A stretch of 34,269 bases of DNA from an uncultured Planctomycetales bacterium (GTDB lineage: Bacteria > Planctomycetota > Phycisphaerae > UBA1845 > PWPN01), in contig CAZMVS010000138.1 of assembly GCA_964569525.1 (NCBI GenBank), positions 1 through 34,269 of the forward strand, written 5' to 3'. The position numbers were made by a program, and so were the translations under genes. The notes under the pieces are model-generated. The model was not told the DNA's origin, searched no databases, and saw only the letters and a program-made list of their open reading frames with translations. Positions 7,613-25,517 of this stretch are shown here, piece by piece; position 1 is the stretch's first letter; every line of letters begins with the position of its first letter.

Positions 7613-10600
7613 CAGGGGAGACCTCCACAGCGGTAAGCTGAGCCCGGTTATCATCAGCCCTGTCTGTACATCGGTGATTTATCGGGGAATCCGGGTTTGA
7701 TTGTTGCTCCGTCTCGCTTTGGTTTAGAGATTGAACGGCTTGTACGGCGCGTTGGGCAACACTTGCCGCTTTCGATGCCGGCTTGTTTTCTGCAGGTATT
7801 CTTTTTTGATCGTCGTATTTCTGAATAGTATTAACTTGGGTTTGTTGAGATTGCACCTGGCGACCAAGATCCCGCCGGAGAGTGGCGAGTTTTTTGGCGG
7901 CGGCTTCGGCGAGCACCCGCTCACGCAAAGCAGCTTTCCCTGCGGCCTCCGTGTCCCGGCGTGCTTGTTCGAGTGTTTGTAATTGTTCGTCCAGGTGGCC
8001 GGATAACTGCTGACCTCGATTTACCAGTCCTTCCAGGGTACCGAGACGTTGATCGGCCTGTTGGAGGCATTCATTTAATTCATCTGTATGTTTGCAGCTC
8101 TTTTGAGTGGTGAATTCCGCGTTTTGGCGGGCATGGTTTAATTCACAGCAGGCGTTTTGCGATTGCTCCAGTTGTTCACGAAGGATGTGCAGTTGATTGG
8201 CGGTTTTCTGATCCAGTTCTGTGGCTTCTTGTACACGTTCCGTTACTTTAGCTGAGGTGTTTTCCAGCGCGCGGCGGACCTGTTCACCTTGTTGGGTTGA
8301 TGCTTTCAAAGGATCTGCCAACGATTCCGCCAGCCGGTTGGCTTGGGTAAGTTTCTGGTGTTGTTGATTAACTTTCTCAAGAAGTTGATGAAATTGATCC
8401 TGCTTGTGATCCAGATCTTTCAGGATTGACGATTGGCAGAGTTGTTCGGCCTGTTTTTGCCGGTTGGTCAGTTGATCGCTGACGCCCTGGGCTTGCTCAA
8501 GATAGTTTTCCAGTAGGTGGATTTGCTGTTCGGATCGGCCGGTGTATTCTTCCGTCGCGTTTTGGGCCTGCTGGATGCAAACTTCCAGATTTTGTCGTTG
8601 TTTGTCCGCTTGGCTGTGCAAGTGCTGGGTGGATGATTCCAGCTGGGTAAATTGCTGTGCCGCAGTTTGAGTATGTTCCTTCAGCCGATGAATAAGTCCG
8701 TCGGTGGCGGATTGGGCTTCGCCAATTTTGTTTTCCAGCTGGCGGCCCTGTCGCAAGGAGGCCATGTTCAGCTCGCGGATGGATTCTTCGGCCTTTTTGA
8801 GACGGTGATCGAAATTCTCTTTCTTTTCATCTATCTCGATACAGAGCCTGTTGATCCCCTCGTCCGCGTGACTGATCATATCCCTAAGACTTTGAATTCG
8901 GTGTTCGGCAATCTCGCCGAGTTGGTTCTTGGTTTGATCGGCGCGCTCAATGTCGGCTTGTAATTGTTGTTGGCGGTCATCCAGGCGAATGGATAAATCA
9001 TCCGCTACCGAGCGAGCTTGCTCGACGTGTTGTTGGAGGAAAACCGCCTGTTTTTGCATATCTTCATTTAACTGCTGGGAGGCGGCATCGGCGGAATTGA
9101 TAATGTTGCCAAGTTCACCGATTCGCTGTTCGGCTTTTTGAGATAGTTGTTCAAGTTCGGTGAGCTGGGCGGCGCTGATGTCAGTCTGTTGTGTCAGGAC
9201 CTTTTGTAGTTGGTCCGACCGGCTAATGATTGATTCGAGGTCTTGTTTGGAATTTTCAGCCTCGGCGAGCTTGTCCGTGCAATTTTGCAGACACTGATGA
9301 GCTTCATCATGAAGGGCATTTTTTTCAGTGCGATGTTTTTTGTATATCTCCTGCAACGCTGCGTATTTCTCGGAAGCCTCAATGAGAGTTCGGTCAAGGT
9401 GGTCGTGGAGTTGGGCGGCTTGGGCGGACGATAGATTGATCTTATGGCTGATCGTTTCCATGGATTCAATCGCCTGGTGCGCCTTTTCGCACCGGCCAGT
9501 CAACTGTTTTAACAATTCGTCGAGTTGTTCACGTTTATTTTCGAGTTCTTTGATGGAATTTGGCCCGCAGCAGGTCTGAGCCCTCTGGTAAACATCGTCC
9601 AGCTGTTGCATGACCGTCCGGGCTTCTTCGAACACCTGGGACAAATTCTGCTGATGTTGCACAGCCTGGCTGGCCAGCTTTTTGGTAAAGGCCTGGCCGG
9701 CTTCGATTCGAGAATCGATGCCGCGGGTGTGATTTTGGATTAGTTCGGCAGCCTGATTGACCGCCTTATCCGCTTCTTGAATTCGCTCGGTAAGTGAAGC
9801 GGAGTTACGTTCGGCTTGCTCATCGAGCTGACGGGAAGCGTCGCTCACTTCCTGGAGTTTATTGTCCAGATGTTCCTGGTGTTGACGCATTTGTCCAACG
9901 ATACGCTGTGCGAGCAAATCTGCACGGTCGGCTTGTTCATGCAAGGAATGTTGCTGCTGTTGGACCTCGGCGGTTACCTGGTCGGTTACTAATCTTGCCT
10001 CGCGGAACAACTCTTGCAAAGCAGAGGATTGCTCTTCAATTTGATCGGTTAATTTGCCTGCTTGATGAATCTGGCCGCTGGCGGATTGGTTGCTTTGATC
10101 CAGTTCTTGGCGAATTTGCTCTGCGCGTTTGGACAAGTCACCCAGCCGTTCAACCTGTTGTTGCAGTTCAGTAAATCGTTGTTCGAGATTGTTGCTCCAC
10201 TGCCCATAAAGAATTTCATCCTGCGAGGCCTGTTGTCGCCAGTGGTCCCAACGCTTTTCCAATTCCTGGAATTGGTCTTGAATTTCTGAGGAGCAACGTT
10301 GGAGTTGTTCTTCGGTTGTAGTAGTTTTTTCTCGAAGATGAGTGAGCGAGTCTTCCACCTTATAGGCCTCTTCCACTCGGCTTTGTAAGTCTGTGGTCAC
10401 CTGTTGGGCTTGGGCGTTTTGGTCGGCCAGGACGGTGGATTGTTTTTCCGCCTGCTGGGTTGTTGCACAGAGCGTGTTTTGTTGTGTGGCGGCCTCCTGA
10501 ATCTCGGTTCGCAGTTCACCTTGCAGACGATTTGCATCTGTCATTAAAGATCGAAGTTGTTGGCCTGTCTCCGACAAGGCTTGGCTTTGCTGTTTACTTT

Positions 10601-13580
10601 CCTCAATTGCGGAGAAAAGATCGCTTAACCGATGTTCGGCATCGGCGCTCATCTCCACCAAGGCCTGATGCTTGTTGTCGCCTTTTTGAAGCGTGTCAGC
10701 CATTTGTTCACGAAGCGTTTTGGTCAATTCCAGGGCGGCGCTCAGACTGTCACATTGACCGGCCGCTTGTTCGACTAGCGATTCCAGTTTTTCACTATTG
10801 CTCTGCAGATTTTGAAAACGATCAGGGTGGCAGGCCTCTTGCGCAAGTTGATAAAGTTCGTTTAACTGAGAGGTGGCGAATTGGGCTTCCTCGATTTGCG
10901 AGGCCAACGCCTGTTGCTGCTCGCTGATACGATTTAGCAGTCTATGTGAATTATCGTTGACTGCCTCCATTTGCGAATCAAGCTGACCGGTCCAATCTTC
11001 TAGGTGTTCCTTCGATTTTTGATTAATTTGTTGTGTTTCATTAATCCGGTTTTGCAGATGTTCGGCCTGTTCCTTAACTTGTCCACCCAGTTCTCTGGCA
11101 GTAGACTCGGCGGCGGCGATACGCTCATTAAGCACATGAGATTGCTGCTCAATACGCTCGATAAGCTGCTCAGCTTTTCGCAGATCGACGTTTAATTCAT
11201 CATGTCTTTCCGTTGAGGCGGTTAAGGTTAACTGGACCTGATTCTGGACTTCATTCAGTTGGGTGATGGTGGATTCGCAATTACAAACAGCATCATTCAG
11301 GGCGTTTAGCTGTTGCTCGCTAAATTGATTGCTGTTTTTTAGTTGGTTAAGTTGCCCTTTGGAAAGTGACAAAGTCGATTGCGCGGAATCATGAGCTTCC
11401 TGTAGCTTGGAGATTAACGCTTCACATTCATCAGCACTCTTGTATAAAGTTTCCAGCCGTTGGTCAGTGGACTGGATTTGACCGGACAAGGTATCCGATT
11501 TTTGATCAGCGTCAGATAAATACGAATAGGCTTGGTTTTGGGCTTCTCGGATTTGAAGAATAACCGCCTGCGAGTTCTGCATCGCCTCGCGCAATGAATT
11601 GAGTTGTTCTTCAATTCGGCAGGCCAACTCCTGAGTTCGCGTGGATTGTTCGCAGGCAGTGGTGATGCTGGAACGGAGGCTTTCGTCCGTTTGTTGGCCC
11701 TGCTCAATGGAGGTTTGTACTTGTTGGTGGACCTGCTCAGCCTGGGCGGTGGCCGAGGACAGCTTTTGCAATTGCTCGGCAGCTTGACTCAAAATCTCCG
11801 ACTGTTTTCGCTCGATTTGTTCCACTGAGCGGTTAGCCTGTTCAATGCTGCCGGTCAGCGAAGCAGTGCAGCTCTGCCCTTTTTCAAGAAGCTTCTTAAG
11901 TTGGCAAATACAGTCATCGCCTTGCTCGAGGTTGTCTTGGATCCTGGCAGTTTCACGACGGAGCTGTTCGGTGTAATCGTCCGTTTCTTTTAGCTTTTGG
12001 CGCATTTCCTGCAGACTGGCTTCTTTGTGATGGGTTATCTGCTCGGTCGTCTGCGAAGCCCGCCTAACGCATTCTCGGAGTTCCGCTTGGGCATCACGAC
12101 TTGTGTCGCGTGAGTCTTCCCCTGCTTGGCGAAGCGCCTGTAAATGTTGTTCGATGTTGGTAATATTCTGAGTGAATTTTTTGTCCAGCTCTGCTGTTCG
12201 CTGATCCAGATCGGAAAGAAGTTGTGCTGCGTTGTTTTTCAATCCTGCCAGTCGTTCGGTAGTAGCCTGAGCTTCCTGCACCACTGCGGCAGCCTGTTTT
12301 TGGGAGTCTTGGAGTTCTTCGGATTTTTGGCGCAGATCGGTGAATTGATGGTCAGCTGCCGACTGGGCCTGCTTTTGCGCCTGGGCAAGCTGGTCATTTG
12401 TTTTGCCGGCTTCTTCGAGCAATTCATGGATTTGCCTGCGGGTAGCTTGGGCCAGCGAAGTGATTTCCCGCTTGGTGTGTTGCAGCTCTTCACCAAGCCT
12501 GGATATCTGCCCGAGTTTCCGGTCGATGTCTTCACTACCGCGATGGGCTTGGCGGTTGGCTTCTTCCAAGCGGCTGGCAGTCTCCCCCCCGCGCCGACTC
12601 GCATCGTCGATTTTCTGAATGGCCAAACGACTGGTCAAATCAATTTCAGCGACCGCTTGTTGTGTTAACGGTGCATAGGGGAAGTTTTGGGGGCCGCCCT
12701 GTAAATGGTTCAGCCCATTGTTCCTTTTTTCTCCCCATTCTAAAGTATTTTGATCTTCCGAATCCGACAACTGAACAGCCATCATGTCTTTGATACAGTT
12801 TGCTACCAGATTCCGATCGATCTGGCGGCGGTCGGCACTATACGCAGCCAACAAAACATTGTCCGCTATCTGGTTAATCGAACGCGGCAAACCCTGGCTC
12901 CGCTCGTGGATCAGGTCTATGGCTTCGGCAGTGAACAAATCGTTGTTATTACAGCCGGCGATCTGCAGACGGTGGCGGATGTAGTTACGCGTCTGATCAG
13001 GTTGGAAAGACTTTAATTCGCAGGAGCAAAACACGCGCTGACGCAGATGAAGCATTTGTGGAAGTTGAAGTTTATGAGCCAGCTCCGGTTGGCCAAGCAG
13101 GACAATCTGCAGCAGCTTGGCGGAGTCTTTTTCGAGATTGGTTAACATGCGCGCGTGTTCGAGCGCGTCTTTATTAAGCGATTGAGCCTCATCGATAACG
13201 GCCACTACGGGCCTGTTATCTACTACGCGCCCCTCGAGGAAGCGACGGATCCGATCGAAAAGCTCGCCGGTTGTATGCGAATGGCGGGAACGGATATTCA
13301 ATTCCCGGCAAAGCGTGATCAGCAAATCGTGTCCGTCGGCCGGTGTGTGGGCAATGGAAACGACATCTGCATCGCTACCTAGTGAGCGGGTCAGCATTAA
13401 ACCCAGAAGAGTCTTACCGGTGCCCGATTGCCCCGTAACAACGGTTATCCCTCGTCGTTGACTAATCCCATAGATTAGCGAGGCTAAAGCTTCTTCGTGA
13501 TCATCCGTCTTGAAGAAAAACCGGGGATCAGCGGTGTTTACAAAAGGCATGCATTGGAAGTTGAAGTACTCTCGGTACAT
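7605..13580 (-). CDS. Giant (1991 aa) protein: N-terminal ExeA/GspA-like AAA ATPase (AAA_22 type) fused to about 1700 aa of Q/E-rich coiled coil
   Basis: N-terminus is MYREYFNFQCMPFVNTADPRFFF...VVTGQSGTGKT (Walker A near 13410..13433), with VAVIDEAQSL (Walker B), LLGQPEL and GLPRSINQIADN, which match the ExeA/MshM-type layout. The remainder is an uninterrupted heptad-like Q/E/L/A-rich sequence. Strong AAGGAAGG SD upstream. Confidence 0.85.
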   Translation of the reverse strand: MYREYFNFQCMPFVNTADPRFFFKTDDHEEALASLIYGISQRRGITVVTGQSGTGKTLLGLMLTRSLGSDADVVSIAHTPADGHDLLITLCRELNIRSRHSHTTGELFDRIRRFLEGRVVDNRPVVAVIDEAQSLNKDALEHARMLTNLEKDSAKLLQIVLLGQPELAHKLQLPQMLHLRQRVFCSCELKSFQPDQTRNYIRHRLQIAGCNNNDLFTAEAIDLIHERSQGLPRSINQIADNVLLAAYSADRRQIDRNLVANCIKDMMAVQLSDSEDQNTLEWGEKRNNGLNHLQGGPQNFPYAPLTQQAVAEIDLTSRLAIQKIDDASRRGGETASRLEEANRQAHRGSEDIDRKLGQISRLGEELQHTKREITSLAQATRRQIHELLEEAGKTNDQLAQAQKQAQSAADHQFTDLRQKSEELQDSQKQAAAVVQEAQATTERLAGLKNNAAQLLSDLDQRTAELDKKFTQNITNIEQHLQALRQAGEDSRDTSRDAQAELRECVRRASQTTEQITHHKEASLQEMRQKLKETDDYTEQLRRETARIQDNLEQGDDCICQLKKLLEKGQSCTASLTGSIEQANRSVEQIERKQSEILSQAAEQLQKLSSATAQAEQVHQQVQTSIEQGQQTDESLRSSITTACEQSTRTQELACRIEEQLNSLREAMQNSQAVILQIREAQNQAYSYLSDADQKSDTLSGQIQSTDQRLETLYKSADECEALISKLQEAHDSAQSTLSLSKGQLNQLKNSNQFSEQQLNALNDAVCNCESTITQLNEVQNQVQLTLTASTERHDELNVDLRKAEQLIERIEQQSHVLNERIAAAESTARELGGQVKEQAEHLQNRINETQQINQKSKEHLEDWTGQLDSQMEAVNDNSHRLLNRISEQQQALASQIEEAQFATSQLNELYQLAQEACHPDRFQNLQSNSEKLESLVEQAAGQCDSLSAALELTKTLREQMADTLQKGDNKHQALVEMSADAEHRLSDLFSAIEESKQQSQALSETGQQLRSLMTDANRLQGELRTEIQEAATQQNTLCATTQQAEKQSTVLADQNAQAQQVTTDLQSRVEEAYKVEDSLTHLREKTTTTEEQLQRCSSEIQDQFQELEKRWDHWRQQASQDEILYGQWSNNLEQRFTELQQQVERLGDLSKRAEQIRQELDQSNQSASGQIHQAGKLTDQIEEQSSALQELFREARLVTDQVTAEVQQQQHSLHEQADRADLLAQRIVGQMRQHQEHLDNKLQEVSDASRQLDEQAERNSASLTERIQEADKAVNQAAELIQNHTRGIDSRIEAGQAFTKKLASQAVQHQQNLSQVFEEARTVMQQLDDVYQRAQTCCGPNSIKELENKREQLDELLKQLTGRCEKAHQAIESMETISHKINLSSAQAAQLHDHLDRTLIEASEKYAALQEIYKKHRTEKNALHDEAHQCLQNCTDKLAEAENSKQDLESIISRSDQLQKVLTQQTDISAAQLTELEQLSQKAEQRIGELGNIINSADAASQQLNEDMQKQAVFLQQHVEQARSVADDLSIRLDDRQQQLQADIERADQTKNQLGEIAEHRIQSLRDMISHADEGINRLCIEIDEKKENFDHRLKKAEESIRELNMASLRQGRQLENKIGEAQSATDGLIHRLKEHTQTAAQQFTQLESSTQHLHSQADKQRQNLEVCIQQAQNATEEYTGRSEQQIHLLENYLEQAQGVSDQLTNRQKQAEQLCQSSILKDLDHKQDQFHQLLEKVNQQHQKLTQANRLAESLADPLKASTQQGEQVRRALENTSAKVTERVQEATELDQKTANQLHILREQLEQSQNACCELNHARQNAEFTTQKSCKHTDELNECLQQADQRLGTLEGLVNRGQQLSGHLDEQLQTLEQARRDTEAAGKAALRERVLAEAAAKKLATLRRDLGRQVQSQQTQVNTIQKYDDQKRIPAENKPASKAASVAQRAVQAVQSLNQSETEQQSNPDSPINHRCTDRADDNRAQLTAVEVSPDA

Positions 13581-18607: not shown

Positions 18608-18952
18608 ATGAGTGCGGATAAATTGGCTGACAAAAAATGCGTACCTTGTAGCGGAGGTATTCCGCCGTTGAAAGGCGATGCTTTGGTCCAGATGCACAAG
18701 CAAGTTCATTCAGATTGGCAGGTGATCGACGAGCATCACCTTGTTCGGGTATTAAAATTCAACGATTTTGCCGAAGCCTTGGACTTTACCAATCAGATTG
18801 GCCGGTTGGCTGAAGAAGAGGGCCATCACCCGGATATTCTACTTTCCTATGGTCAGGTAAAGGTGACTTTGCTTACGCATAAGATTGATGGTTTGAGCGA
18901 AAGCGATTTTATCCTGGCCGCCAAGATCGATCAGCTTTATGGTGGGGCATAA
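18608..18952 (+). CDS. Pterin-4a-carbinolamine dehydratase (PCD/DCoH family), copy 1
   Basis: 114 aa with FNDFAEALDFTNQIGRLAEEEGHHPDILLSYGQVKVTLLTH and an N-terminal CVPC. GGAGGTGAG SD upstream. Confidence 0.85.
   Translation: MSADKLADKKCVPCSGGIPPLKGDALVQMHKQVHSDWQVIDEHHLVRVLKFNDFAEALDFTNQIGRLAEEEGHHPDILLSYGQVKVTLLTHKIDGLSESDFILAAKIDQLYGGA
18904..18931 (+). repeat. 28-nt stretch identical to 19875..19902
   Basis: cgattttatcctggccgccaagatcgat occurs in both PCD paralogues and encodes DFILAAKID. Confidence 0.95.
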
Positions 18953-19023: not shown

Positions 19024-19473
19024 ATGAAACATGCATTTATAATATTGTCAGGTATCCTCCTGGTTATATTGCCGGCAGGTTGTGGTGTGATCGGTACTTT
19101 TTTGGATGTTTTCCAGCCGAATGAAACGACGGTAAACTTGGTGAACAATGCCGATTATCCGGTCAGGGTGTTGCTGTATTATGACGACGAACAGGATGCC
19201 CCTGAGGAATTTATAAAAGAGTTCGGAACCGAGCGGCAAATTACCATTGAGGCGGGTGCGCAACAAAGCTTTTCTCGCGACTGTGAAGAATTGCAAGCCA
19301 TTTTCATCGAAAATGCCGAGCTGCGCATTATAGGGGAAATCGGCCCAGAGGCGGCGACCGGCGTCCATCGCGACGGCGAGGATTTCAATTGTGGCGATAC
19401 GATCAATTTTACCTTTGACCATTCGGCTATACTTACAGACTTTGATGTAATAGTGGAAGTTGTCAACGGGTAA
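19024..19473 (+). CDS. Lipoprotein, function unknown
   Basis: 149 aa with the signal peptide plus lipobox MKHAFIILSGILLVILPAGC. Confidence 0.6.
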   Translation: MKHAFIILSGILLVILPAGCGVIGTFLDVFQPNETTVNLVNNADYPVRVLLYYDDEQDAPEEFIKEFGTERQITIEAGAQQSFSRDCEELQAIFIENAELRIIGEIGPEAATGVHRDGEDFNCGDTINFTFDHSAILTDFDVIVEVVNG

Positions 19474-19578: not shown

Positions 19579-19914
19579 ATGAATACCGGAAATTTATCTG
19601 CAAACCAATGTACGCCATATACCGGGGGAGTTCCGCCGTTGCGGGGGGATGCGCTGGAAATGGTGCGTTGCCAGTTGGGCAAAGACTGGCAGGCCGTCAA
19701 CGAACATCACTTGGAAAAAGAGTTTACCTTTGATGATTTTGCCCAAGCCTTGGAGTTCACCAACAAAGTTGGGCAGCTGGCGGAGCAACAAAAGCATCAT
19801 CCCGATATCAAGCTTTCCTATGGCAAAGTTTTAATTCGGCTATGGACGCGCGCGGTAAATGGTATGACGGATAACGATTTTATCCTGGCCGCCAAGATCG
19901 ATGAATTAGAATAA
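19579..19914 (+). CDS. Pterin-4a-carbinolamine dehydratase (PCD/DCoH family), copy 2
   Basis: 111 aa with FDDFAQALEFTNKVGQLAEQQKHHPDIKLSYGKVLIRLWT. Roughly half the residues are identical to copy 1 by eye. The N-terminal CxxC is degenerated to CTPY. Confidence 0.85.
   Translation: MNTGNLSANQCTPYTGGVPPLRGDALEMVRCQLGKDWQAVNEHHLEKEFTFDDFAQALEFTNKVGQLAEQQKHHPDIKLSYGKVLIRLWTRAVNGMTDNDFILAAKIDELE
19875..19902 (+). repeat. 28-nt stretch identical to 18904..18931
   Basis: See 18904..18931. Confidence 0.95.
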
Positions 19915-19981
19915 TAGAAGATATTTGCTCGGCAAATGTCTGACCGGCCTAACAAATCACTTTCTGCACTAAATATTATCC

Positions 19982-20009
19982 ATGCACAGCTTGGAAACAA
20001 ACTGTGCAT
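19982..20009 (-). terminator. Hairpin between convergent genes (possible terminator of the five-gene operon)
   Basis: 8-bp stem atgcacag / ctgtgcat with a 12-nt loop, immediately after the stop at 20011..20013 on the minus strand. The following U-tract is only weak. Confidence 0.35.
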
Positions 20010-20010
20010 A

Positions 20011-21081
20011 CTAGATAATTCGGCTTTGCTTTTCGTCCACCATGCGAGTATCTGCCTGAATCCATGATCTAAAAATGTCAGCCAATCTGCCGCTTGAAAT
20101 TGGCGTAGCACCTTGCAAAAGTTGCATTTCGATTTTTTTATAAAAACGAGCTATTCTGTCGAGGCCCTCAATATCCAACCGGCGGTACAGCTCCGAGGTC
20201 AGCCGGACAATGCGCTCGGGTTGTTTTTGCTTCCAGAATTTTTTCAACAATTCGAACCATGCAGGCGCATGTTCGATGGGGCGGTCCGACAATGCATCTG
20301 TGTTTATAATGGTAATAGGCTGACCGGCAATTAGTCGCTGCAAGTTAGCCGGTTTTTCCGGCAGCCAGGTTACCTGCATTTGTCTTTGAGGCGAGTAATT
20401 TAAACCACAGGAGGCGGCGACTTGGGGGCGGATTTTTGCAGGCAACGCTAGCAAGGCCCATTGCAGTATATCGCGTGGATCATTTACTCCGATGATTAAC
20501 AGGGACTCACCTGCCAGCAGAAGATCCGCCAGTGACCAAATTGCCTCCGACATTATTCCGCTCGGCAAGTTACATTTTTCCGCCGGATCGATATCATATT
20601 CCGCGTCTTGTCCGCAAATGGAAAAAGGCTCGAAATATCTTTGTGGTTTGAGCAGTGGGCCCTGGTGGTTGATATGCGTATTAAGCAAGCGCCACAAGGC
20701 CAACGGATCCTCGCCGAGGCAGCGGTAAGTTTTAGGATCCACCAGCAAGAGATGCGAATAAACCCGCTGGCCGCCGCGGGAGGTGTGCTCTCTGCCGGCA
20801 TAACAGCTGCAGATAATAATTTGTCGGCCGGTAGAGGCTTGCCAAGTGGCAAAGCCTTTCGCTTCGGAGAAGTTTGAACTCAGTCCACCATGAGAAGGCG
20901 CCCGCCGTAGGATTTCCGCTTTTTCTTCAGGCGTAACACCTGCACTAGCGGCGATGATCCGGTAGCCCTCGCCGGTCGGCGAGCGCACCGAGGTGAACAC
21001 TGCCTGGTCGGCGGAAAGAGTCGGTGATTCCTTGCGGGTTAAGATTTCCGGACACGTGATTACAGCTGATTGATCGTCCAT
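20011..21081 (-). CDS. Hypothetical protein with a GAP1-like (GTPase-associated protein) N-terminal motif
   Basis: 356 aa. The start overlaps the GTPase gene by 22 nt. The N-terminal QAVFTSVRSPTGEGYRIIAASAGVTPEEK matches the [Q-x-h-F/Y-T-S ... G-x-G-aromatic-R/Q-h-h-A-x-S-x-G-h] signature I recall for GAP1 N-terminal domains. No signal peptide. Confidence 0.75.
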   Translation of the reverse strand: MDDQSAVITCPEILTRKESPTLSADQAVFTSVRSPTGEGYRIIAASAGVTPEEKAEILRRAPSHGGLSSNFSEAKGFATWQASTGRQIIICSCYAGREHTSRGGQRVYSHLLLVDPKTYRCLGEDPLALWRLLNTHINHQGPLLKPQRYFEPFSICGQDAEYDIDPAEKCNLPSGIMSEAIWSLADLLLAGESLLIIGVNDPRDILQWALLALPAKIRPQVAASCGLNYSPQRQMQVTWLPEKPANLQRLIAGQPITIINTDALSDRPIEHAPAWFELLKKFWKQKQPERIVRLTSELYRRLDIEGLDRIARFYKKIEMQLLQGATPISSGRLADIFRSWIQADTRMVDEKQSRII

Positions 21082-21947
21082 TGGAACGGCTCCAAAATGC
21101 CCTGCAACGCGGTATGCAGGGGAATGGGAGTGACGTAATCTTCCTGGGGCGAGGCGGCGTATCCCAATCCGCCGACCACGCTGCAGGCAAAGAACTCAAT
21201 GTTTGCAAAGCGGCTTTCACACAGGTTCCACAGGCGATGCAGATTGGCTTGGGCGAATCTCCGGGGATCATCAAAGCACTCTGGGCAATAATCCGCTTTG
21301 CAAAGCACGATTGCTAAAGGCATCTTAAGGCGTTGGTTTCGCTTGGAGGCATAGAGTGAGTCGATGTAGCTGAGCATCTTCACTCCGAAAAAGTCGGGCT
21401 GCGAGGAACCATTGGCCGCCAAGGCGGCATCTACCAGCAGCATGGAACCCGCGGAACGAAGCAGCAAGTCGCGAATCACTTTGAAGGTATTAGGTGCGGA
21501 CACCTCCGCCGCCAGGGACTCGCCGGCCATGTCGGGCATCAGCAGATCAATCCATTTGGCTTTGGGCGAACGTTGGTAGATCTGGTAATAAGCCCAATAC
21601 CACTGGTTCATTTCCATGGGCGTTTTGGGCGGAAAGCAGCGGTGGGCCATGTGGCTGATCACGTTTTGCTGCAACTCGATAGAGTAAGCGCCGCGAGGGA
21701 TGGCTTCATAATTGGCCACCCGTTGGGTGAGCATGTCCAACAGGAAGCCGAGATACACCGTTTTGCCGACGTTGCTCTCACCGATAATGCTGACGATTTG
21801 CGGCTCGCGTTGCTGGGCGACGATGTCACGGGCCAACGCCATGGGTGCCCCGCACTCAATGCAGACCGCCGCGTCGGACATGTTCTTGGTGCCACAAATT
21901 AGGCAGCTTGTTCCGGTTACAGTTGCAGTTTTGGCCGGACTCACCAT
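21060..21947 (-). CDS. Zinc-ribbon-fused P-loop GTPase (TRAFAC-like)
   Basis: 295 aa. Zinc ribbon CLIC...CIEC (near 21852..21905), G1 GESNVGKT (near 21759..21782), G3 DMAGE, a G4-like LCKAD, and a possible G5 FACSVV. AAAGGAGG SD upstream. Confidence 0.8.
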   Translation of the reverse strand: MVSPAKTATVTGTSCLICGTKNMSDAAVCIECGAPMALARDIVAQQREPQIVSIIGESNVGKTVYLGFLLDMLTQRVANYEAIPRGAYSIELQQNVISHMAHRCFPPKTPMEMNQWYWAYYQIYQRSPKAKWIDLLMPDMAGESLAAEVSAPNTFKVIRDLLLRSAGSMLLVDAALAANGSSQPDFFGVKMLSYIDSLYASKRNQRLKMPLAIVLCKADYCPECFDDPRRFAQANLHRLWNLCESRFANIEFFACSVVGGLGYAASPQEDYVTPIPLHTALQGILEPFQWTINQL

Positions 21948-21959
21948 AAGCCTCCTTTA

Positions 21960-22964
21960 TCAAGCAGAACCGGCGTTCAATGCACAACGAAAACCGACGT
22001 TGTGAGACCGCGTCAGGCTGGGCAGCCCGGTACGGAAATAACTGGTGGCCTGGTTTGGGAAGTAAGTATCGAAGCCCCCCCCGCGAATACTCTTGAGCAG
22101 CATATCGCCGACCACGGGCCGACCCTCGTCGTCCGTTACCTGGAAATCCGCAGCCGTCCATTCCCATACGTTCCCGATTAATTGCAGGACACCGTTGGGG
22201 GCGGCTCCGGAAGGATAGGCATCGACCGGCGCGGTGCCGCAAAGTCCCGAGGCCCAGATGTTGCATCGCTCGGTATCCAGGGCATCACCCCACGGATAAC
22301 GGCGGAGTATTTGAGCGGAACTGCGGATCCGCCAACTGGCCGCCATTTGCCATTCTGCTTCGCTGGGTAAACGGTAACCGGCCCAGCGGGCATAGGCGGC
22401 GGCTTCGTAATAGCAGATACCCACGACGGGATGATGGGCAAGGCGGTGATCATGTCGGCCCTGTCGCCAGAAACGCGGGCCGGGATTGCCCGTTTGATCC
22501 ACGAAATCGATCAAGTGCGGCCAAATTTCCTTGGGCCAAAGTTCGAGTTGTTCATAAGCGCCGTCGTCCACAAAGTGTTGAAACTGTTGGCAGGTAACCG
22601 CGCAGCGAGCGAGCAGAAAGGGTTCGGTCTCACTATTCGTTTCTGAACAGCCCGGCTCGTCGTTGACCGTCTGCGGCAGGGAGACGAATCCCTCCGGGAC
22701 CAGGGCGAAGCGTTCGTCGATGGTCTCGAAAGAAGAACGAACGATTTGCTGCCCCTTGGCGTGGTTTTTCCATTGTTGTGGATCAGCGGCAATCAATCCG
22801 TAACGTTCTTGGTGGAAATAACGGCTTAATTCATCATCGGGAAACTTGATATTACGTGCGGGTTGATAGTTTCTTGGATCCCAATGCGAGGCGAATGGTT
22901 GAGACTTGCCGCCAGCGGTAGATTTGCGTTGTTTCTTCTTTTTAGACAAAAGACCCAGAGGCAT
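21960..22964 (-). CDS. FGE/SUMF1-fold (formylglycine-generating-enzyme-like) domain protein, cytoplasmic, lacking the catalytic cysteine pair
   Basis: 334 aa with YYEAAAYARWAGYRLPSEAEWQMAA, GNVWEWTAADF, IRGGGF and NVGFRCA, which are the family blocks. No signal peptide. GGAAGGGAGA SD upstream. Confidence 0.85.
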   Translation of the reverse strand: MPLGLLSKKKKQRKSTAGGKSQPFASHWDPRNYQPARNIKFPDDELSRYFHQERYGLIAADPQQWKNHAKGQQIVRSSFETIDERFALVPEGFVSLPQTVNDEPGCSETNSETEPFLLARCAVTCQQFQHFVDDGAYEQLELWPKEIWPHLIDFVDQTGNPGPRFWRQGRHDHRLAHHPVVGICYYEAAAYARWAGYRLPSEAEWQMAASWRIRSSAQILRRYPWGDALDTERCNIWASGLCGTAPVDAYPSGAAPNGVLQLIGNVWEWTAADFQVTDDEGRPVVGDMLLKSIRGGGFDTYFPNQATSYFRTGLPSLTRSHNVGFRCALNAGSA

Positions 22965-22999
22965 CAGGCTTTCTCCCTTCCATATTCAGCGGGTGGTTA

Positions 23000-24001
23000 T
23001 CAGGCACCGATGGCCCGACGCTTGGCATCCCGACACAGTTTCTGAAATCGTTGCAGGGAACTGCGGGCTTGTTCGTCTTCGATGCGGGGGACGTCCTTGT
23101 CTGCGGATTGTCCATCGCCCGAAGAATTCCCGCTGGCACCGTATTTGGGCAGTAATTCGCTTTTCTGTTCGGAAACCTTTTCCAACTCGTCTTTGAGCTG
23201 ATTCTGCAGGCTGGTAAGGTTGTCTTTGGCGGCGTTCAATTCCTCCATGCGAGCGGACCATTCCTGCTTCATCTGTTCTAATTCCGATCGATCCTGCTGG
23301 ATGGTTTGTTCCTGTTGTTTGAGCGAGTCGGCCAACTCCGCCAATTCTTTTTCCTTGCCTTGGAGTAGTTCTCGCTGTTCCTCGAGGGTAAATTGGGCTT
23401 CTTCCAGTTGCCGGCGCTGTTCAGCCAGGGAAGACTGTTCCGATTCATAAGCGGTTTGCTGTTTTTCGAAGCGGCTGGCTTCGTCTTGAATGGCTTCACG
23501 CTTTTGCTGTAACTGGTGATCCTGCTCGTCGAGTTCGGATCGGCGGGGTTTCAATTCCTCTTGCTGACTGTCAATGTCCTCCTGCAATTGGAGAACCTCA
23601 TTTTCACGGCTTTGAAGGTTGTCTTCTCTTTGTTGGAGTTCGTTTTCCTGTGCGAGCAGCTGGTCGGATCGCTGTTGCAGATCGCTTTCCCGGTCGGCCC
23701 GCTGCTGTTCAGTTTCTTCCACTTTCTGTTCTCGACGGGCGACTTCCTGTTCCCTGGATTCCAGCGTCTGGCATAATTCGTTTTCGTATTGGCTAAGCTC
23801 CTCGCGTTCCTGGATCAATTGTTGATGGTGGGTTTCGAGGGCCGTTCGGCAGGATTCCAAAGCCTCGGCCCGCGCCTGCAGCAGTTCCCGCACGTCCTGC
23901 ATTACGGTGATAATGTCTTTCCCTAAACTTTCCATTTGATCCACCGGAGGCAGATCGACCGTCTCCAATTCCAGGTTTTGTTGTGCAATCTGGTTCATCA
24001 T
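23000..24001 (-). CDS. Q/E-rich coiled-coil protein
   Basis: I prefer ATG 24001..23999 (MMNQIAQQN...), which overlaps the upstream stop as ATGA and follows AAGGGGA. About 250 aa are heptad-like (LQQRSDQLLAQENELQQREDNLQSRENEVLQLQ...). Basic C-terminus QRFQKLCRDAKRRAIGA. Confidence 0.7.
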   Translation of the reverse strand: MMNQIAQQNLELETVDLPPVDQMESLGKDIITVMQDVRELLQARAEALESCRTALETHHQQLIQEREELSQYENELCQTLESREQEVARREQKVEETEQQRADRESDLQQRSDQLLAQENELQQREDNLQSRENEVLQLQEDIDSQQEELKPRRSELDEQDHQLQQKREAIQDEASRFEKQQTAYESEQSSLAEQRRQLEEAQFTLEEQRELLQGKEKELAELADSLKQQEQTIQQDRSELEQMKQEWSARMEELNAAKDNLTSLQNQLKDELEKVSEQKSELLPKYGASGNSSGDGQSADKDVPRIEDEQARSSLQRFQKLCRDAKRRAIGA

Positions 24002-24732
24002 TTCCCCTTTCGACGGAACCACGATTTTTTGCGGGGTTGTTGCTTTTCAGTCTGTTGTTGGTTTTGTTGGACTTCTTTAATGATTGTGTGAATATTTTTT
24101 CTTTCCGGTGATAACCGGCGGATGATGCGGACTTGTTTAGCGATTTGTTCATCCAGGGTGGCCAATAAGGTTTCTTCATCGTCCAGTGCGCTTTCCTGGG
24201 TTTGTTCGGCTAAGCTATTTTGTGCTTGTGTATCGGCGATGTGTATTGATGCCATCGCGTTATCTGTGTTATTGGCGATGGGTTTTTGCTGTTCCGCGAA
24301 GGCTGACTCGGTTTGGATGTCATTTGTGTCGGATGAAGCTACTGGCTGGTTGGTGCTGCCCGCGGCATCGCTGTGCTCGGATGACATCTCGCACGATGTC
24401 GCGTTGTCCAAATCTGTGGAAGAATCGCTTTTCGCTTGGACAGTTAGGTCCATGCCTTCCGACGAAGAGGCTGACTCATTCGTTTCGACAATTTGATTTT
24501 CAAAATTATCAGTTTTCGGAGAAGATTTTTGTCGTGCCTTCGCTTTATCGGGCGCATGTTCCAAGTGGCGGATCTGGCGCAATTGCTGGAAGACCCGTTC
24601 CATAGCCGACGTCCAGGTGGATAACTTGTGATCCAAGTCGGCCAAGGCGCTGCCAATCGCCTCGTTTTCAGGCGGAATACAAATGCTCGTGATGTCCGGT
24701 GTCGTGTTATCCATCATTTCAACATAAGGCAT
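23998..24732 (-). CDS. Acidic S/T/D/E/N/Q-rich, predicted disordered protein with short structured ends and a basic tail
   Basis: 244 aa with the C-terminal tail QQPRKKSWFRRKGK. The stop is coupled to the next gene through an ATGA overlap, which supports real translation. No obvious SD upstream. Confidence 0.6.
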   Translation of the reverse strand: MPYVEMMDNTTPDITSICIPPENEAIGSALADLDHKLSTWTSAMERVFQQLRQIRHLEHAPDKAKARQKSSPKTDNFENQIVETNESASSSEGMDLTVQAKSDSSTDLDNATSCEMSSEHSDAAGSTNQPVASSDTNDIQTESAFAEQQKPIANNTDNAMASIHIADTQAQNSLAEQTQESALDDEETLLATLDEQIAKQVRIIRRLSPERKNIHTIIKEVQQNQQQTEKQQPRKKSWFRRKGK

Positions 24733-25082
24733 TTACTTAAACGGGTTCGTTATGATCCGAGCTTTTAGTCAAGGGCCAAGCTTTGAGAATATACAATTTA
24801 TTTGTGGGGTGAAGGCAAATGATTTCCCAAAAATTTACCGACATTCGACATTCATGACCATTTTGGTTCAGCTCATCTCGGATTTCGCATCCGTACGTAG
24901 TCCGTCCCATAAGACGGAACGAGTAAAGCTGAAGAATAACAAGGTTCGATTTGCCTTTGTGTTGATTTAAATCGTAGTTGTGTAAGCGATGCGCCTCCGT
25001 GGAGGGCATTTATTTACCGGACGAACAACGTTAACGGATGCTTAGGATTCGTATAGTACATCAATTACCAAGGGGAAGCAGA

Positions 25083-25517
25083 ATGAACGAATGGCAGGAA
25101 CGTTTCGCCAACAAAATGAATCTAATCCGTGAGCAGTCCGCAGAGCAGTTCAAGCGGTACTCCCAGGACGTTCTTACGCCCGTGTTCCAAAATCTGGCGG
25201 AATTTGTCGCCCAGTGGGACATGCAGGCGACTTCACCGCAGGATCAAAGCGACCGCAGAACTTTCAAGTTTGCCTTGGCTGAAGATTCTTACGTTTTGGT
25301 CGGGTTTCGGCTCCACGGGTTGGAAACGGTCGAGTGTGGTTATGAATGCTGGATTCCCAGTGTAGGCCGACAGACAGGTGGGAACACGCATATTGGTTTG
25401 GACGAAGCGGACCGTGCTTGGGCTGAATCCTGTTTCCAAGCCTGTTTGGATCACTTGGCCAATAAATATGCCGAAAACGGCAGCACCGAGGAATCCGTTG
25501 CCTCGGTAATGGCCTGA
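25083..25517 (+). CDS. Hypothetical protein
   Basis: The ORF begins at ATG 25083 (MNEWQERF...), preceded by AAGGGGA. I recognise no motifs. Confidence 0.5.
   Translation: MNEWQERFANKMNLIREQSAEQFKRYSQDVLTPVFQNLAEFVAQWDMQATSPQDQSDRRTFKFALAEDSYVLVGFRLHGLETVECGYECWIPSVGRQTGGNTHIGLDEADRAWAESCFQACLDHLANKYAENGSTEESVASVMA

Follow-up and report, generated by a model that had tools for sequence, protein, structure and literature searches.

The DO-GTPases have been placed in the TRAFAC class (Kaur et al., 2020). The same study explicitly mentions planctomycete GAP1-N2 systems with FGS domains and assigns the wider family to the conflict systems. No experimental work on the GTPase/GAP1 family was found in the literature searched. 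The kind of system analysed here is already known, from computational description only. An earlier note on this DNA had considered the five-gene composition to be uncharacterised, which is only partly right, since a computational description of the core dates from 2020. New are the conservation pattern, the slow evolution, the fold of the GAP1 protein, a wider core, and a link to chemotaxis.

The window (the whole stretch of DNA that was analysed, 34,269 nt) carries five minus-strand ORFs at 20011-24732, here called g1 to g5, which are packed and positioned as the earlier note had listed them. The features of the locus are as follows (coordinates, strand, description).

25038..25517, plus strand: protein of 159 aa without a Pfam family, divergent from g1, a possible sixth partner
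24733..25037, strand not applicable: divergent intergenic region of 305 nt ahead of g1, presumed to hold the promoter
23998..24732, minus strand: g1, ORF of 244 aa, polar, acidic protein
24001..24183, minus strand: conserved C-terminal region of g1 (residues 184-244), DEALLASLDPETAKAIRV.RRL...KSVRELL...KKSWWRR
23000..24001, minus strand: g2, 333 aa counted from the ATG, highly charged coiled-coil protein
23003..23053, minus strand: C-terminal docking-type motif of g2, QRFQKLCRDAKRRAIGA, with the general form QFxxLxR[DE]xx[KR]
21960..22964, minus strand: g3, 334 aa, cytoplasmic protein of the FGE-sulfatase fold (C-type-lectin-like)
21060..21947, minus strand: g4, 295 aa, zinc-ribbon DO-GTPase (TRAFAC class)
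21852..21905, minus strand: single N-terminal zinc ribbon of g4, CxxC...CxxC (C15, C18, C29, C32)
20011..21081, minus strand: g5, 356 aa, GAP1-N2 protein
20770..20790, minus strand: loop E98-H-T-S-R102-G-G of g5, joining strands beta4 and beta5 in the longin-like domain
19981..20010, minus strand: terminator-like 13-bp hairpin with a T-rich tract behind it, directly after the g5 stop codon

The junctions are of the coupling type, each as described in the earlier note. Genes g1 and g2 have a common ATGA (24001-23998) with AAAGGGG ahead of it, g2 and g3 are separated by 35 nt with GGAAGGGAGA ahead of the g3 ATG, g3 and g4 are separated by 12 nt with AAAGGAGG, and g4 and g5 overlap by 22 nt. The longest ORF for g2 begins at a GTG (24022). 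A consensus sigma-70 site was looked for in the presumed promoter region and none was found. Across g1 to g5, hydrophobicity stays below a TM-like level in every 19-residue window but for one segment of g5 that is buried inside a confident AF2 model.

Pfam confirmed the family assignments of the earlier note for g3, g4, and g5 (FGE-sulfatase, DO-GTPase1/2, and GAP1-N2). The zinc-ribbon P-loop GTPase claimed for g4 is well founded: besides its one zinc ribbon, g4 has the motifs G1 to G4 (G56ESNVGKT63, FPPKT109, D139MAGE143, and CK217AD219) and matches DO-GTPase1 (3.9e-9) and DO-GTPase2 (2.1e-8), both above the 27-bit cut-off. All four zinc-ribbon cysteines are invariant in alignment A1, as are the corresponding four in the Planctomycetia-type alignment A3. 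The DxxGE Walker B motif and [CT]KxD are invariant in the g4-type and the Planctomycetia-type alignments. The AF2 model of g4 (pLDDT 77.7) finds generic TRAFAC GTPases in Foldseek searches.

For g3, an FGE/SUMF1 fold devoid of catalytic cysteines had been proposed. The protein matches FGE-sulfatase (PF03781, 2.1e-38), and the PDB alignment places no cysteines at the positions of the Cu-binding catalytic pair of FGE. One public annotation calls g3 a 'gamma-glutamyl hercynylcysteine S-oxide synthase', in NCBIfam and the PDB it best matches the C-terminal domains of EgtB, SenA, and OvsA, and P-loop GTPases often mature metalloenzymes. These points speak for an enzymatic pathway in which g3 is an active EgtB/OvoA/FGE-like oxidase and the zinc-ribbon GTPase its metallochaperone or maturation factor, a reading that we consider highly improbable. 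The match to the EgtB NCBIfam model reaches 108.9 bits where the cut-off is 360, and it is partial, spanning no more than positions 200-353 of the 413 in the model. The PDB alignment begins at EgtB residue 176, so that g3 is without the DinB-type iron-binding domain, and the best full-length match in the PDB alignments is SUMF2, an inactive paralogue. The operon holds neither ergothioneine/ovothiol genes nor sulfatases. Also, we take the DO-GTPases to be outside the G3E metallochaperone family. Their placement in the TRAFAC class (Kaur et al., 2020) likewise argues against the enzymatic pathway. Because g3 lacks both the FGE cysteine pair and the DinB/iron domain of EgtB, it is, judged from its sequence, probably a binding module.

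The GAP1-like N-terminus claimed for g5 is supported by a match to GAP1-N2 (PF20013, 2e-9, 38 bits, cut-off 24). In the AF2 model (pLDDT 86.9, pTM 0.84), residues 21-140 form a longin-like N domain, residues 153-265 an alpha/beta M domain, and residues 273-355 a helical C domain; the topology is beta-beta-alpha-beta-beta-beta-alpha-alpha. The top Foldseek matches are folliculin, TagF, C9orf72-SMCR8, GATOR1 subunits, and the Lst4 longin domain. The match to FLCN has an E-value of 3.6e-6 and a Foldseek probability of 0.99, with a low whole-chain TM-score (0.18-0.19, rmsd about 30 A); that to TagF has a modest whole-chain TM-score (0.33-0.35). No link to any solved structure was found for g5 at the sequence level. 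The g5 model resembles folliculin and TagF in joining a longin-like domain to an alpha/beta domain of the DENN-like kind. Among 84 GAP1 sequences drawn from the three clades (see below), E98 and R102 show 100% conservation, whereas the other arginines are clade-specific in this set. R102 is a candidate arginine finger; in eukaryotic longin GAPs the arginine finger sits in the longin domain (PMC12290439). The 'GP motif' of the eukaryotic longin GAPs is absent as such from g5, whose corresponding loop carries an invariant G39-Y40.

The description of g1 as acidic and disordered and of g2 as a coiled coil of about 330 aa agrees with the polar, acidic g1 (pI 4.9) and the charged g2. Protein g1 matched no Pfam family. 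In a profile over 55 orthologues, both ends of g1 are conserved, as a helix motif near the N-terminus (about residues 20-45) and as a helical C-terminal region whose last residues form a basic-Trp tail (KKSWF/WRR), and the acidic linker between them is variable. Its true start may be M6/M7. By BLAST, g1 was found upstream of g2 in 54 of the 81 related loci. Among 76 orthologues of g2, the N-terminal region (about residues 25-85) and the C-terminal tail are conserved, and the central rod is variable. Family searches with g2 gave only matches of the coiled-coil type (SMC, HmpF, and the N-terminal region of RNase Y), all below their cut-offs. The docking-type motif of g2 recurs, in all three Planctomycetota clades, in the protein whose gene directly precedes the FGE-like gene.

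As checked outside the source genome, the five genes recur as a unit. Strict peptide patterns recovered 111 species genomes, all of them MAGs. After removal of duplicates, with one locus per genome and mostly Phycisphaerae MAGs, the order g1-g2-g3-g4-g5 is collinear and on one strand at 81 of 81 loci from other genomes, so the arrangement is far beyond chance. The four-gene core, consisting of a coiled coil with a QFxxLxR[DE] tail, the FGE-like protein, the GTPase, and GAP1, was found in the three clades of Planctomycetota that were sampled; the locus represents this phylum-wide cytoplasmic GTPase module in its Phycisphaerae-type form.

The reading that the earlier note put first was a system for NTP-dependent conflict or defence, containing sensor or adaptor modules. 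In a system of the Kaur et al. (2020) type, acting against phages or by abortive infection, the DO-GTPase and GAP1 would form a threshold-setting switch, the FGS-fold protein would sense or bind a molecule of the invader, and the coiled-coil proteins would build an effector superstructure. Membership in the DO-GTPase and GAP1-N2 families fits, as the defining paper reads these families as conflict systems, mentions planctomycete FGS variants, and names inactive enzyme-like domains and multimerising scaffolds as typical effectors. It is also consistent that g2 and g5 diverge faster than g3 and g4. However, g3 and g4 are as slow-evolving as housekeeping enzymes: for the same genome pairs, identity is 57% for HisRS compared to 78% for g4 and 67% for g3, and 80% for chorismate synthase compared to 80% for g4 and 75% for g3. 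Between loci of different species, the putative sensor/effector g3 keeps an identity of 48-72%. The cassette is single-copy with a fixed order, and it is flanked in the window by housekeeping genes (TruB, NadA, sigma factors, HslU-like). The flanks in other genomes are also housekeeping rather than defence islands, and no flanking gene family recurs at more than 9 loci. The distribution is not of the patchy kind that the earlier note had suggested looking for; it looks clade-wide and order-conserved. Cassette relatives were absent from the IMG/VR viral collection and from a plasmid collection, PADLOC gave no match for g3 to g5, and the window has neither a DGR-type template/variable repeat pair nor a reverse transcriptase. 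No toxic effector domain is recognisable in the cassette, and it has no FNIII or TM component. We therefore consider a conflict system unlikely.

A further point against it comes from Planctomycetia, where the module is embedded in a chemosensory operon. At 13 of the 14 loci with enough flank, the FGE-like/GTPase/GAP1 trio lies downstream of chemosensory genes on the same strand, in the order CheW, MCP, hybrid CheA, REC/PATAN, FHA/coiled coil, and small coiled coil; the FHA protein is visible at a further nine, shorter loci. The basic-Trp tail of the FHA/coiled-coil proteins (SRL.KLWKRLEG) weakly resembles that of g1. This linkage is confined to the Planctomycetia clade (Che or FHA genes occur within 8 kb at 0 of 84 loci from the window's own clade) and its GTPase shares about 35% identity with g4, so that a transfer of function rests on orthology of the four-gene core. 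PATAN proteins recurrently adjoin MglA/MglB (PMC4316618), and in cyanobacteria pilus polarity is under the control of a coiled-coil protein whose gene lies next to a PATAN chemosensory system (PMC12288463).

The alternative of a cytoskeletal or cell-biological GTPase module, also raised earlier, comes nearer to the reading favoured here, especially through this linkage. In its structural form, a GTPase and long coiled coils would build or constrict a structure, for example in FtsZ-less division. To our knowledge, planctomycetes lack FtsZ. The coiled-coil partners are conserved and reach 730-1334 aa in one metagenomic subclade, and high conservation in single copy would also suit such a machine. 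Kaur et al. (2020) link GAP1-N2 systems found elsewhere to tubulin and to 'complexes akin to cytoskeletal structures'. Yet g4 is small, a G domain plus a zinc ribbon without stalk, paddle, TM segment, or amphipathic membrane-binding element, and its top Foldseek matches are the G domains of translation factors and of Ras-like proteins, with neither dynamins nor septins among them. The longin-type regulator and the chemosensory linkage indicate a switch. A structural machine is thus rather improbable.

We lean towards a cytoplasmic GTPase module for signalling or polarity, not a diversifying conflict system. Such a cellular switch is likelier than anti-virus defence because of the housekeeping-slow evolution and the chemotaxis-type operon end in relatives. 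For this module we infer a GAP activity, protein contacts, and a cellular role along the following lines. Protein g4 would be a GTP/GDP switch on which g5 docks, setting its nucleotide state, most likely as a GAP inserting the invariant R102. The elongated g1 and g2 would serve as scaffolds or adaptors, with their terminal conserved motifs holding the globular partners, and would place the complex in the cell; g1, with two conserved helical ends and a variable acidic linker, is a fifth protein added in the Phycisphaerae-type clade. The target of g3 would be a conserved ligand or partner within the cell, not an invader that varies. The task of the module would most likely be a housekeeping one in signalling or polarity, for instance to put a polar machine (pili, flagellum, holdfast, or growth zone) in place or to switch it on, by analogy with Frz-RomR-MglA/MglB of Myxococcus and with Hmp-HmpF of cyanobacteria.

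The 159-aa protein is possibly a lineage-specific sixth partner of the cassette; it may reflect plain synteny, since homologues occur at only 9 of the 81 loci. In 8 related loci the homologue is encoded divergently upstream of g1, and in locus L042 it lies directly downstream of g5.

Five closely packed genes, g1 to g5, lie on the minus strand, and the ORFs and junctions described in the earlier note were recovered at the same positions when the sequence was read directly.

Genes of the cassette (positions in the window)
23998-24732, minus strand: g1, ORF for an acidic protein
23000-24001, minus strand: g2, ORF for a coiled-coil protein
21960-22964, minus strand: g3, ORF for an FGE-like protein
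21060-21947, minus strand: g4, ORF for a DO-GTPase
20011-21081, minus strand: g5, ORF for a GAP1-N2 protein

The g1 stop and the g2 start have the sequence ATGA in common. Genes g2 and g3 are spaced by 35 nt, with GGAAGGGAGA ahead of the g3 ATG, and g3 and g4 by 12 nt, with AAAGGAGG. Gene g5 follows directly downstream of the GTPase gene, overlapping the g4 stop by 22 nt. Directly 3' of the g5 stop lies a 13-bp hairpin, the tail of which is rich in T, and between g1 and a divergent gene there are 305 nt. When the window was scanned for Rfam families and tRNAs, no matches were obtained.

Protein g4 matches the Pfam families DO-GTPase1 (3.9e-9) and DO-GTPase2 (2.1e-8) above the gathering score (36.6 and 34.5 bits for PF19975 and PF19993, cut-off 27). 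Homologues form 636 clusters at 90% identity in a large protein collection; in the best 120 of these, both families are detected without exception (120/120), and all are about 295 aa long with 65-91% identity. The nearest relatives are from Phycisphaerae and Planctomycetota MAGs, from which the host is probably a member of the Phycisphaerae. An alignment of 29 orthologues has a mean column identity of 74% and displays the motifs G56ESNVGKT63, an invariant FPPKT109, D139MAGE143 and CK217AD219. The Walker B glutamate is thus present (D139-M-A-G-E143), its D, G and E being invariant or nearly so in the window-type as well as in the Planctomycetia-type alignments. A single CxxC...CxxC zinc ribbon (C15, C18, C29, C32) is encoded; a second ribbon is absent. 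The structure model of g4 (pLDDT 77.7) retrieved only generic TRAFAC G domains with Foldseek (EF-Tu/eEF1A, Rab27, RABL3, Arl2 and an Asgard Rag-like protein), among which no specific subfamily can be named. A GTPase profile search of PDB sequences found no relevant solved relative, and Ras, MglA and Robl_LC7 have no Pfam match in g4 or g5.

For g5, the match is to GAP1-N2 (PF20013; 2e-9, 38.1 bits against a cut-off of 24), and for g3 to FGE-sulfatase (PF03781; 2.1e-38 over residues 89-328). Pfam thus confirms the earlier note as regards the families of g3 to g5. This also means that the five-gene composition, put forward there as uncharacterised, is of a kind already known computationally. The DO-GTPase and GAP1 are the constant parts of the "GTPase-centric" conflict systems described by Kaur, Burroughs, Iyer and Aravind (2020; eLife 9:e52696). 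According to these authors, DO-GTPases belong to the TRAFAC class, have a Walker B glutamate and often carry one or two zinc ribbons (60% of the family); GAP1 is encoded downstream of the GTPase, has three domains and occurs in the subtypes N1 and N2; and N2 systems include an FNIII protein that evolves rapidly and, as a rule, two zinc ribbons (Kaur et al., 2020).

The planctomycete FGS variant of Kaur et al. resembles our locus in its DO-GTPase with a DxxGE Walker B and an N-terminal zinc ribbon, in an overlapping GAP1-N2 gene downstream, in an FGS/FGE-fold protein and in its planctomycete host. The single ribbon of g4 fits the range of the DO-GTPase family but not the two-ribbon pattern usual for N2 systems. 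Further differences are that there is one GTPase rather than a paralogous pair, and that an FNIII-repeat protein and TM components are lacking; no fn3 match was obtained in g1 to g5 or in 20 flanking proteins scanned. Neither the coiled-coil and g1 partners nor longin, DENN, TagF, roadblock, chemotaxis, CheA or PatA are mentioned by Kaur et al. (2020), whose supplement has no Phycisphaerae or GAP1-N2 entries as text. The literature searched contained no experimental paper on DO-GTPase/GAP1 systems.

In one public source, g3 is named "gamma-glutamyl hercynylcysteine S-oxide synthase" (EgtB), and the alignments that score best are to EgtB and OvsA, in each case to the C-terminal domain; over its full length, g3 aligns best with SUMF2, the inactive paralogue of FGE. 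The PDB alignment begins at EgtB residue 176, so that the iron-binding DinB domain is absent from g3. The EgtB model TIGR03440 is matched with 108.9 bits against a cut-off of 360, at model positions 200-353 of 413. Because of the missing DinB/iron domain and a score of 109 bits against 360, the ergothioneine-enzyme name appears to be a misannotation or over-annotation, and it is likely to spread. At the catalytic copper-binding Cys pair, where FGE (6muj) reads "ylChdsyC", g3 has a gap and "dtyfpnq". Lacking both the DinB domain and the Cys pair, g3 was rejected as an active EgtB or FGE enzyme. That the cassette represents an enzyme-plus-chaperone pathway, as the public name of g3 might suggest, is in our view very improbable. 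SUMF2/pFGE (1y4j) is the only solved structure aligning with g3 as far as its C-terminus that likewise lacks the catalytic Cys pair. It is a secreted metazoan ER protein, whereas g3 is cytoplasmic, is encoded in a GTPase operon and has an additional N-terminal region of about 90 residues. Diversification of the FGS fold of g3 by a DGR was considered and rejected: there is no template/variable repeat (g3 has no repeats beyond 30-31-nt chance-level matches), the g3 C-terminus is highly conserved, and no reverse transcriptase is encoded among the window proteins scanned.

Protein g1 has no Pfam family, and g2 has only below-threshold matches of coiled-coil type (SMC, the N-terminal region of RNase Y, HmpF). 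Homology of g2 to HmpF was set aside, as the match (NF038350, 9.4e-8, 31 bits against a cut-off of 200) probably reflects coiled-coil composition. TM-like segments were not found in g1 to g5; the single hydrophobic maximum, in g5, corresponds to a buried helix-strand of a confident model.

The distribution of the cassette was analyzed by scanning one genome per GTDB species. Relatives were found in 111 genomes, and 80 of their loci were examined; g1 to g5 were compared by BLAST with the ORFs of these and of four earlier loci, which left 81 non-duplicate loci. The earlier note had proposed checking the gene order in other genomes, and in all 81 loci the detected genes are collinear and on one strand. 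All five genes were detected in 49 of the loci; the remaining 32 are mostly contigs that end too soon on one side or cases in which the fast-evolving g1 escapes BLAST. Identity to the window is highest for g4 (58-77%) and g3 (48-72%), and lower for g5 (27-42%), g2 (25-40%) and g1 (23-53%, often over short motifs only). There is one cassette locus per genome in this species scan. Outside g1 to g5, no flanking gene family recurs in more than nine loci, and the cassette is thus a discrete unit placed in varying housekeeping surroundings. In the window, it is flanked by genes for TruB, NadA, a sigma-54 activator, a sigma-70 factor, two pterin dehydratases, carbonic anhydrase, AhpC and an HslU-like ATPase; elsewhere, the flanks include poly(A) polymerase, HisRS, purE, kynurenine-pathway and radical-SAM/PKS genes.

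The gene divergent from g1 (25038-25517, plus strand) codes for a 159-aa protein without a Pfam family. Homologues occupy the same divergent position in eight loci from other genomes (L006-L009, L013, L017, L023, L028) and, in locus L042, a position directly downstream of g5. This protein could be a lineage-specific sixth partner, or the arrangement could be plain synteny. Seven collinear loci with a GTPase identity of 62-64% come from MAGs labelled Alphaproteobacteria, Binatia/Binatota or Myxococcales. In three of them (L053, L056, L069) all of g1 to g5 were detected; in the other four (L071, L074, L077, L078) g1 was not detected by BLAST. These labels reflect either mis-binning or mislabelling, or transfer outside Planctomycetota.

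The earlier note had read the locus as a candidate conflict or defence system, as the filing of the DO-GTPase/GAP1 family by Kaur et al. would suggest. The accompanying genes of those systems are variable, whereas those of the cassette are strongly conserved. Evolutionary rates were compared in genome pairs which share a flanking housekeeping gene, using mean identities. For pairs sharing HisRS (n=15), these are 57% for HisRS, 78% for g4 and 67% for g3; for pairs sharing chorismate synthase (AroC), they are 80% for AroC, 80% for g4 and 75% for g3; and for pairs sharing the kynurenine pathway, they are 79-91% for the enzymes, 97% for g4 and 91% for g3. These same-pair identities indicate that the FGS-fold protein g3, which would be the sensor or effector of a conflict system, is under purifying selection of housekeeping grade and is not diversifying. 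Carriage of the cassette by phages or plasmids was rejected, as no relatives were found on IMG/VR viral contigs or on PLSDB plasmids. In PADLOC-DB v2, g3, g4 and g5 are without match, and g2 matches only the coiled-coil regions of JetC, LmuB and ZorA, which we consider noise. No nuclease, protease, pore-former or TM protein is encoded among the cassette proteins. Variable effectors and mobile neighbourhoods, which are hallmarks of conflict systems, were thus looked for and not encountered, and the flanks are of housekeeping type. This argues against the conflict reading without proving a non-defence role. With g3 and g4 evolving at housekeeping rate, a fixed order in 81 loci and no viral or plasmid copies, we regard a conflict system as unlikely; if it were one after all, its strong conservation and lack of mobility would be unusual for a defence system and would also deserve attention.

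Modelled with AlphaFold2 on the basis of 32 homologues (pLDDT 86.9, pTM 0.84), g5 has three domains, at residues 21-140, 153-265 (alpha/beta) and 273-355 (helical), and thus shows the N/M/C build of GAP1, even though the Pfam models of the GAP1 M and C domains have no match to g5 at E<=1. According to DSSP of the model, residues 21-140 have the longin topology beta-beta-alpha-beta-beta-beta-alpha-alpha (E21-34, E37-46, H51-60, E75-81, E87-97, E105-114, H116-121, H126-140; pLDDT mostly >90). In a Foldseek comparison with PDB, folliculin (FLCN) ranked first (6nzd_H, E 3.6e-6, probability 0.99; also 8dhb_J and 6ulg_L), with about 400 aligned columns and a whole-chain TM of only 0.18-0.19, which is low because the domain orientations differ. 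TagF was matched as well (9t0n, E 6e-4, TM 0.33-0.35; also 6iz8), and consistent lower-ranked matches were obtained to C9orf72-SMCR8, GATOR1 subunits, the Lst4 longin domain and BLOC-3. The matches are therefore to longin or longin-DENN partners of small GTPases, plus one bacterial look-alike, TagF. At the sequence level, Pfam longin and DENN models do not match g5 at E<=1, and a GAP1 profile search of PDB sequences found nothing relevant. No report in the literature searched connects GAP1 or TagF with longin or DENN.

When 84 GAP1 N domains, drawn from three clades, were aligned, ten residues proved to be universally conserved: Q26, S31, G39, Y40, S46, G48, P62, L67, E98 and R102. R102 is the sole arginine conserved in all 84 sequences; the loop in which it lies, E-x-[ST]-x-R-G-G, connects strand 4 with strand 5. 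The eukaryotic longin GAPs FLCN, NPRL2 and SMCR8 use an arginine finger in their longin domain (PMC12290439, from which the definitions of the finger and of the GP motif were also taken). Since longin GAPs employ such a finger and R102 is invariant, we infer, short of proof, that GAP1 regulates the GTPase directly, with R102 as the candidate finger; alternatively, GAP1 may serve as a GEF or as a platform. The loop ahead of strand 2 in g5 contains the invariant G39-Y40 and no GP, so the GP motif of the eukaryotic longin GAPs is absent, and the GAP role of g5 is putative.

The best structural matches of the g5 model are FLCN-FNIP (RagC/D GAP), the NPRL2/3 subunits of GATOR1 (RagA/B GAP) and C9orf72-SMCR8 (Arf GAP). 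As judged from the model, g5 has in common with these regulators an N domain of longin topology with an alpha/beta domain after it, a GTPase partner and one invariant arginine in the longin or longin-like domain. It differs from them in that there is no detectable sequence similarity and the global TM-scores are low; moreover, FLCN, GATOR1 and SMCR8 function at membranes, where two longin-DENN subunits form a heterodimer that acts on Rag or Arf GTPases. TagF, a post-translational repressor of T6SS that binds Fha, is a bacterial protein and has, in the model comparison, the most similar overall fold. We know of no GTPase partner of TagF. TagF acts by binding an FHA protein (PMC5995506), and a parallel to the TagF-Fha pairing is seen in Planctomycetia, where the GAP1 gene is located three genes downstream of an FHA gene; unlike in the TagF case, there are no T6SS genes here, sequence similarity is absent, and the window's clade has no FHA protein.

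An exhaustive phmmer search of 1.84 billion representatives returned only 255 GTPase clusters at E<=1e-3. One full-length cluster represents the window's clade (clade A, Phycisphaerae-type), a few have an identity of 38-45%, and a larger set of about 30-36%, all of about 300 aa. The set at about 35% belongs to Planctomycetia (clade B; labels Planctomycetaceae or Pirellulaceae), with the cultured Maioricimonas rarisocia Mal4 (CP036275.1, around Mal4_47980) among its members. Clade B has a trio consisting of an FGE-like protein (~320 aa), the DO-GTPase and a short GAP1-N2 protein (~240 aa). The trio is encoded on the same strand as, and directly downstream of, genes for CheW, an MCP, a hybrid CheA (Hpt-HATPase_c-CheW-REC), a REC/PATAN response regulator (PatA_N, DUF4388), an FHA/coiled-coil protein (~500 aa) and a small coiled-coil protein (~180 aa). 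In a metagenome scan with the Planctomycetia-type alignment, 80 more loci were examined. The chemosensory genes are present in this order in 13 of the 14 clade-B loci with enough upstream sequence, nine shorter loci have the FHA protein upstream, and an independent Pfam scan of one locus (L098) confirmed every domain of the operon. The exception is L092, on a 140-kb metagenome contig (9291-11672), which has ample flanking sequence devoid of upstream chemosensory, FHA and coiled-coil genes and a short FGE-like ORF (~238 aa); this trio might be a copy that is in decay or has been relocated. In the 84 clade-A loci, no Che or FHA homologues are present within 8 kb on either side of the genes, and there are none in the window. 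No account of a planctomycete Che-FHA-FGE-GTPase operon was encountered in the literature searched.

The Planctomycetia operon agrees with the window in the three downstream genes and their order, in a QFxxLxR[DE] coiled-coil tail and in the invariant GAP1 residues including R102. The GTPases are about 35% and the FGE-like proteins about 43% identical; the Planctomycetia GAP1 is short, without the C domain, and an FHA/coiled-coil protein takes the place of g1. A third clade, C, has a coiled coil, an FGE-like protein, the GTPase and a long GAP1 in variable flanks. It comprises a subset of the metagenome loci L126-L169 (for example L161, 7250-12212, and L163, 5024-9011), with the trio about 40% identical to clades A and B. 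The clade-C FGE-like ORF is often longer (up to 461 aa, in L161), GAP1 reaches about 570 aa, and a coiled-coil gene is found upstream; g1 and Che genes are both absent.

In all three clades, the upstream neighbour of the FGE-like gene is a coiled coil with a common C-terminal motif.

C-terminal motif of the coiled-coil protein
Clade A: [DE]QFRKLRRDAKRKAIGV
Clade B: LQFQQLRREMQKH..RR
Clade C: MAQFEMLQKDIARRR

The common motif and position make g2 part of a conserved four-gene core. On this basis only, g2 would be the counterpart of the small coiled coils of Planctomycetia; profile HMMs of g1 and g2 retrieved nothing from the Planctomycetia small proteins at E<=0.01. The g1 tail KKSWWRR bears a weak resemblance to the tail SRL.KLWKRLEG of the clade-B FHA/coiled-coil protein. 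In a clade-A metagenome subclade (L128-L168), giant coiled coils of 730-1334 aa, mostly encoded divergently, adjoin the cassette (for example L155, 4517-8521, minus strand, and L136, 2710-6084, plus strand). A g1-like C-terminal region is present in those of L136 (E 2e-12) and L128 (1.5e-7), so that fusions of g1 with very long coiled coils can occur.

The cassette is a conserved, single-copy, cytoplasmic module of four or five proteins. At its centre are a GTPase and a partner whose N domain is longin-like and whose predicted fold resembles those of folliculin and TagF; in one clade, the module makes up the 3' portion of a chemosensory operon of the PATAN type. We incline, with some reserve, to the view that it is a cellular GTPase signalling or polarity module. 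In such a module, g4 would act as the switch and would be regulated by g5 in the manner of a GAP, g2 and g1 would be elongated scaffolds that dock via their conserved ends, and g3 would serve to bind some conserved target in the cell. The output would be a decision on polarity, motility or positioning, and in Phycisphaerae the input might be encoded elsewhere in the genome. More tentatively, and as a possibility to which we give less credence, GAP1 would be a longin-DENN-type regulator acting as a GAP through the invariant R102, and the core would be the output switch of a PATAN chemosensory system that sets polarity in Planctomycetota, with pili, flagellum, holdfast, or the budding or division site as targets. 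A structural cytoskeletal or division machine, to which the long coiled coils might lend themselves, was akin to an alternative in the earlier note; with the chemosensory linkage and the predicted regulator fold at hand, we hold it to be quite improbable. Planctomycetota have, to our knowledge, no FtsZ, and their polarity and division machinery is largely unknown.

Several known systems can be compared with the signalling module which we favour. PATAN proteins recur beside mglA and mglB genes (PMC4316618), and in Myxococcus xanthus the Frz chemosensory system sets polarity via RomR and MglA/MglB (PMC3441718). MglA/MglB (with RomR-RomX and Frz) resembles the cassette in combining a small GTPase with a dedicated regulator, predicted in the case of g5, of the longin/roadblock class, and resembles the Planctomycetia relatives in its coupling to chemosensory proteins and a response regulator, which is functional in Myxococcus and consists of gene linkage only in Planctomycetia. 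Unlike MglA/MglB, g4 is not of the MglA family, g5 is by sequence not a roadblock protein and is much larger, with three domains, an FGE-fold protein and coiled-coil partners are encoded in the operon, and the cassette is known from genes alone. Cyanobacterial PATAN chemosensory systems polarise type IV pili via an adjacent coiled coil, HmpF, which relocalises and is reported to be exclusive to cyanobacteria (PMC12288463). These Hmp/Tax-type systems have the PATAN regulator, CheW, MCP, hybrid CheA and adjacent coiled coil in common with the Planctomycetia relatives; unlike the cassette, they are without GTPase, GAP1 and FGE-like protein (PMC12288463).

DO-GTPase/GAP1 systems are known from one comparative-genomics paper, where they are filed with conflict systems. 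The present analysis adds evidence that this branch behaves as a cellular signalling module: the predicted folliculin/TagF-like fold with its invariant arginine, the core of four genes that extends across Planctomycetota, and the linkage to chemosensory genes. The window locus, more than 80 orthologous loci and the Planctomycetia relatives indicate that at least this branch acts like a conserved cellular module, and a specific mechanism can be offered, namely that a longin/DENN-like partner with one invariant arginine acts on the GTPase with its zinc ribbon, the input being chemosensory in one clade. The hypothesis is concrete and can be tested in cultured planctomycetes. If true, bacteria would have a second, independent polarity system of a small GTPase and a longin-class regulator besides MglA/MglB, the folliculin/TagF-like architecture of a GTPase partner would exist in bacteria, and at least this branch of the DO-GTPase "conflict systems" would be functionally misassigned.

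Two further features of the window were recorded. A 1991-aa ORF (7605-13580, minus strand) has an N-terminal AAA_22/AAA_16 P-loop and a weak HTH_5 match, the remainder being without Pfam match; it may code for a STAND-like NTPase whose long tail consists of repeats or helices. The AT skew is strongly negative (-0.25 to -0.35) at 8-13 kb. The two pterin-4a-carbinolamine dehydratase genes (18608-18952 and 19579-19914, both plus strand) are paralogous; between them lies a 149-aa ORF (19024-19473) that belongs to no Pfam family and whose N-terminus is hydrophobic and resembles that of a lipoprotein. This pair has a spacing of 971 nt and a 44-nt stretch in common at 89% identity.
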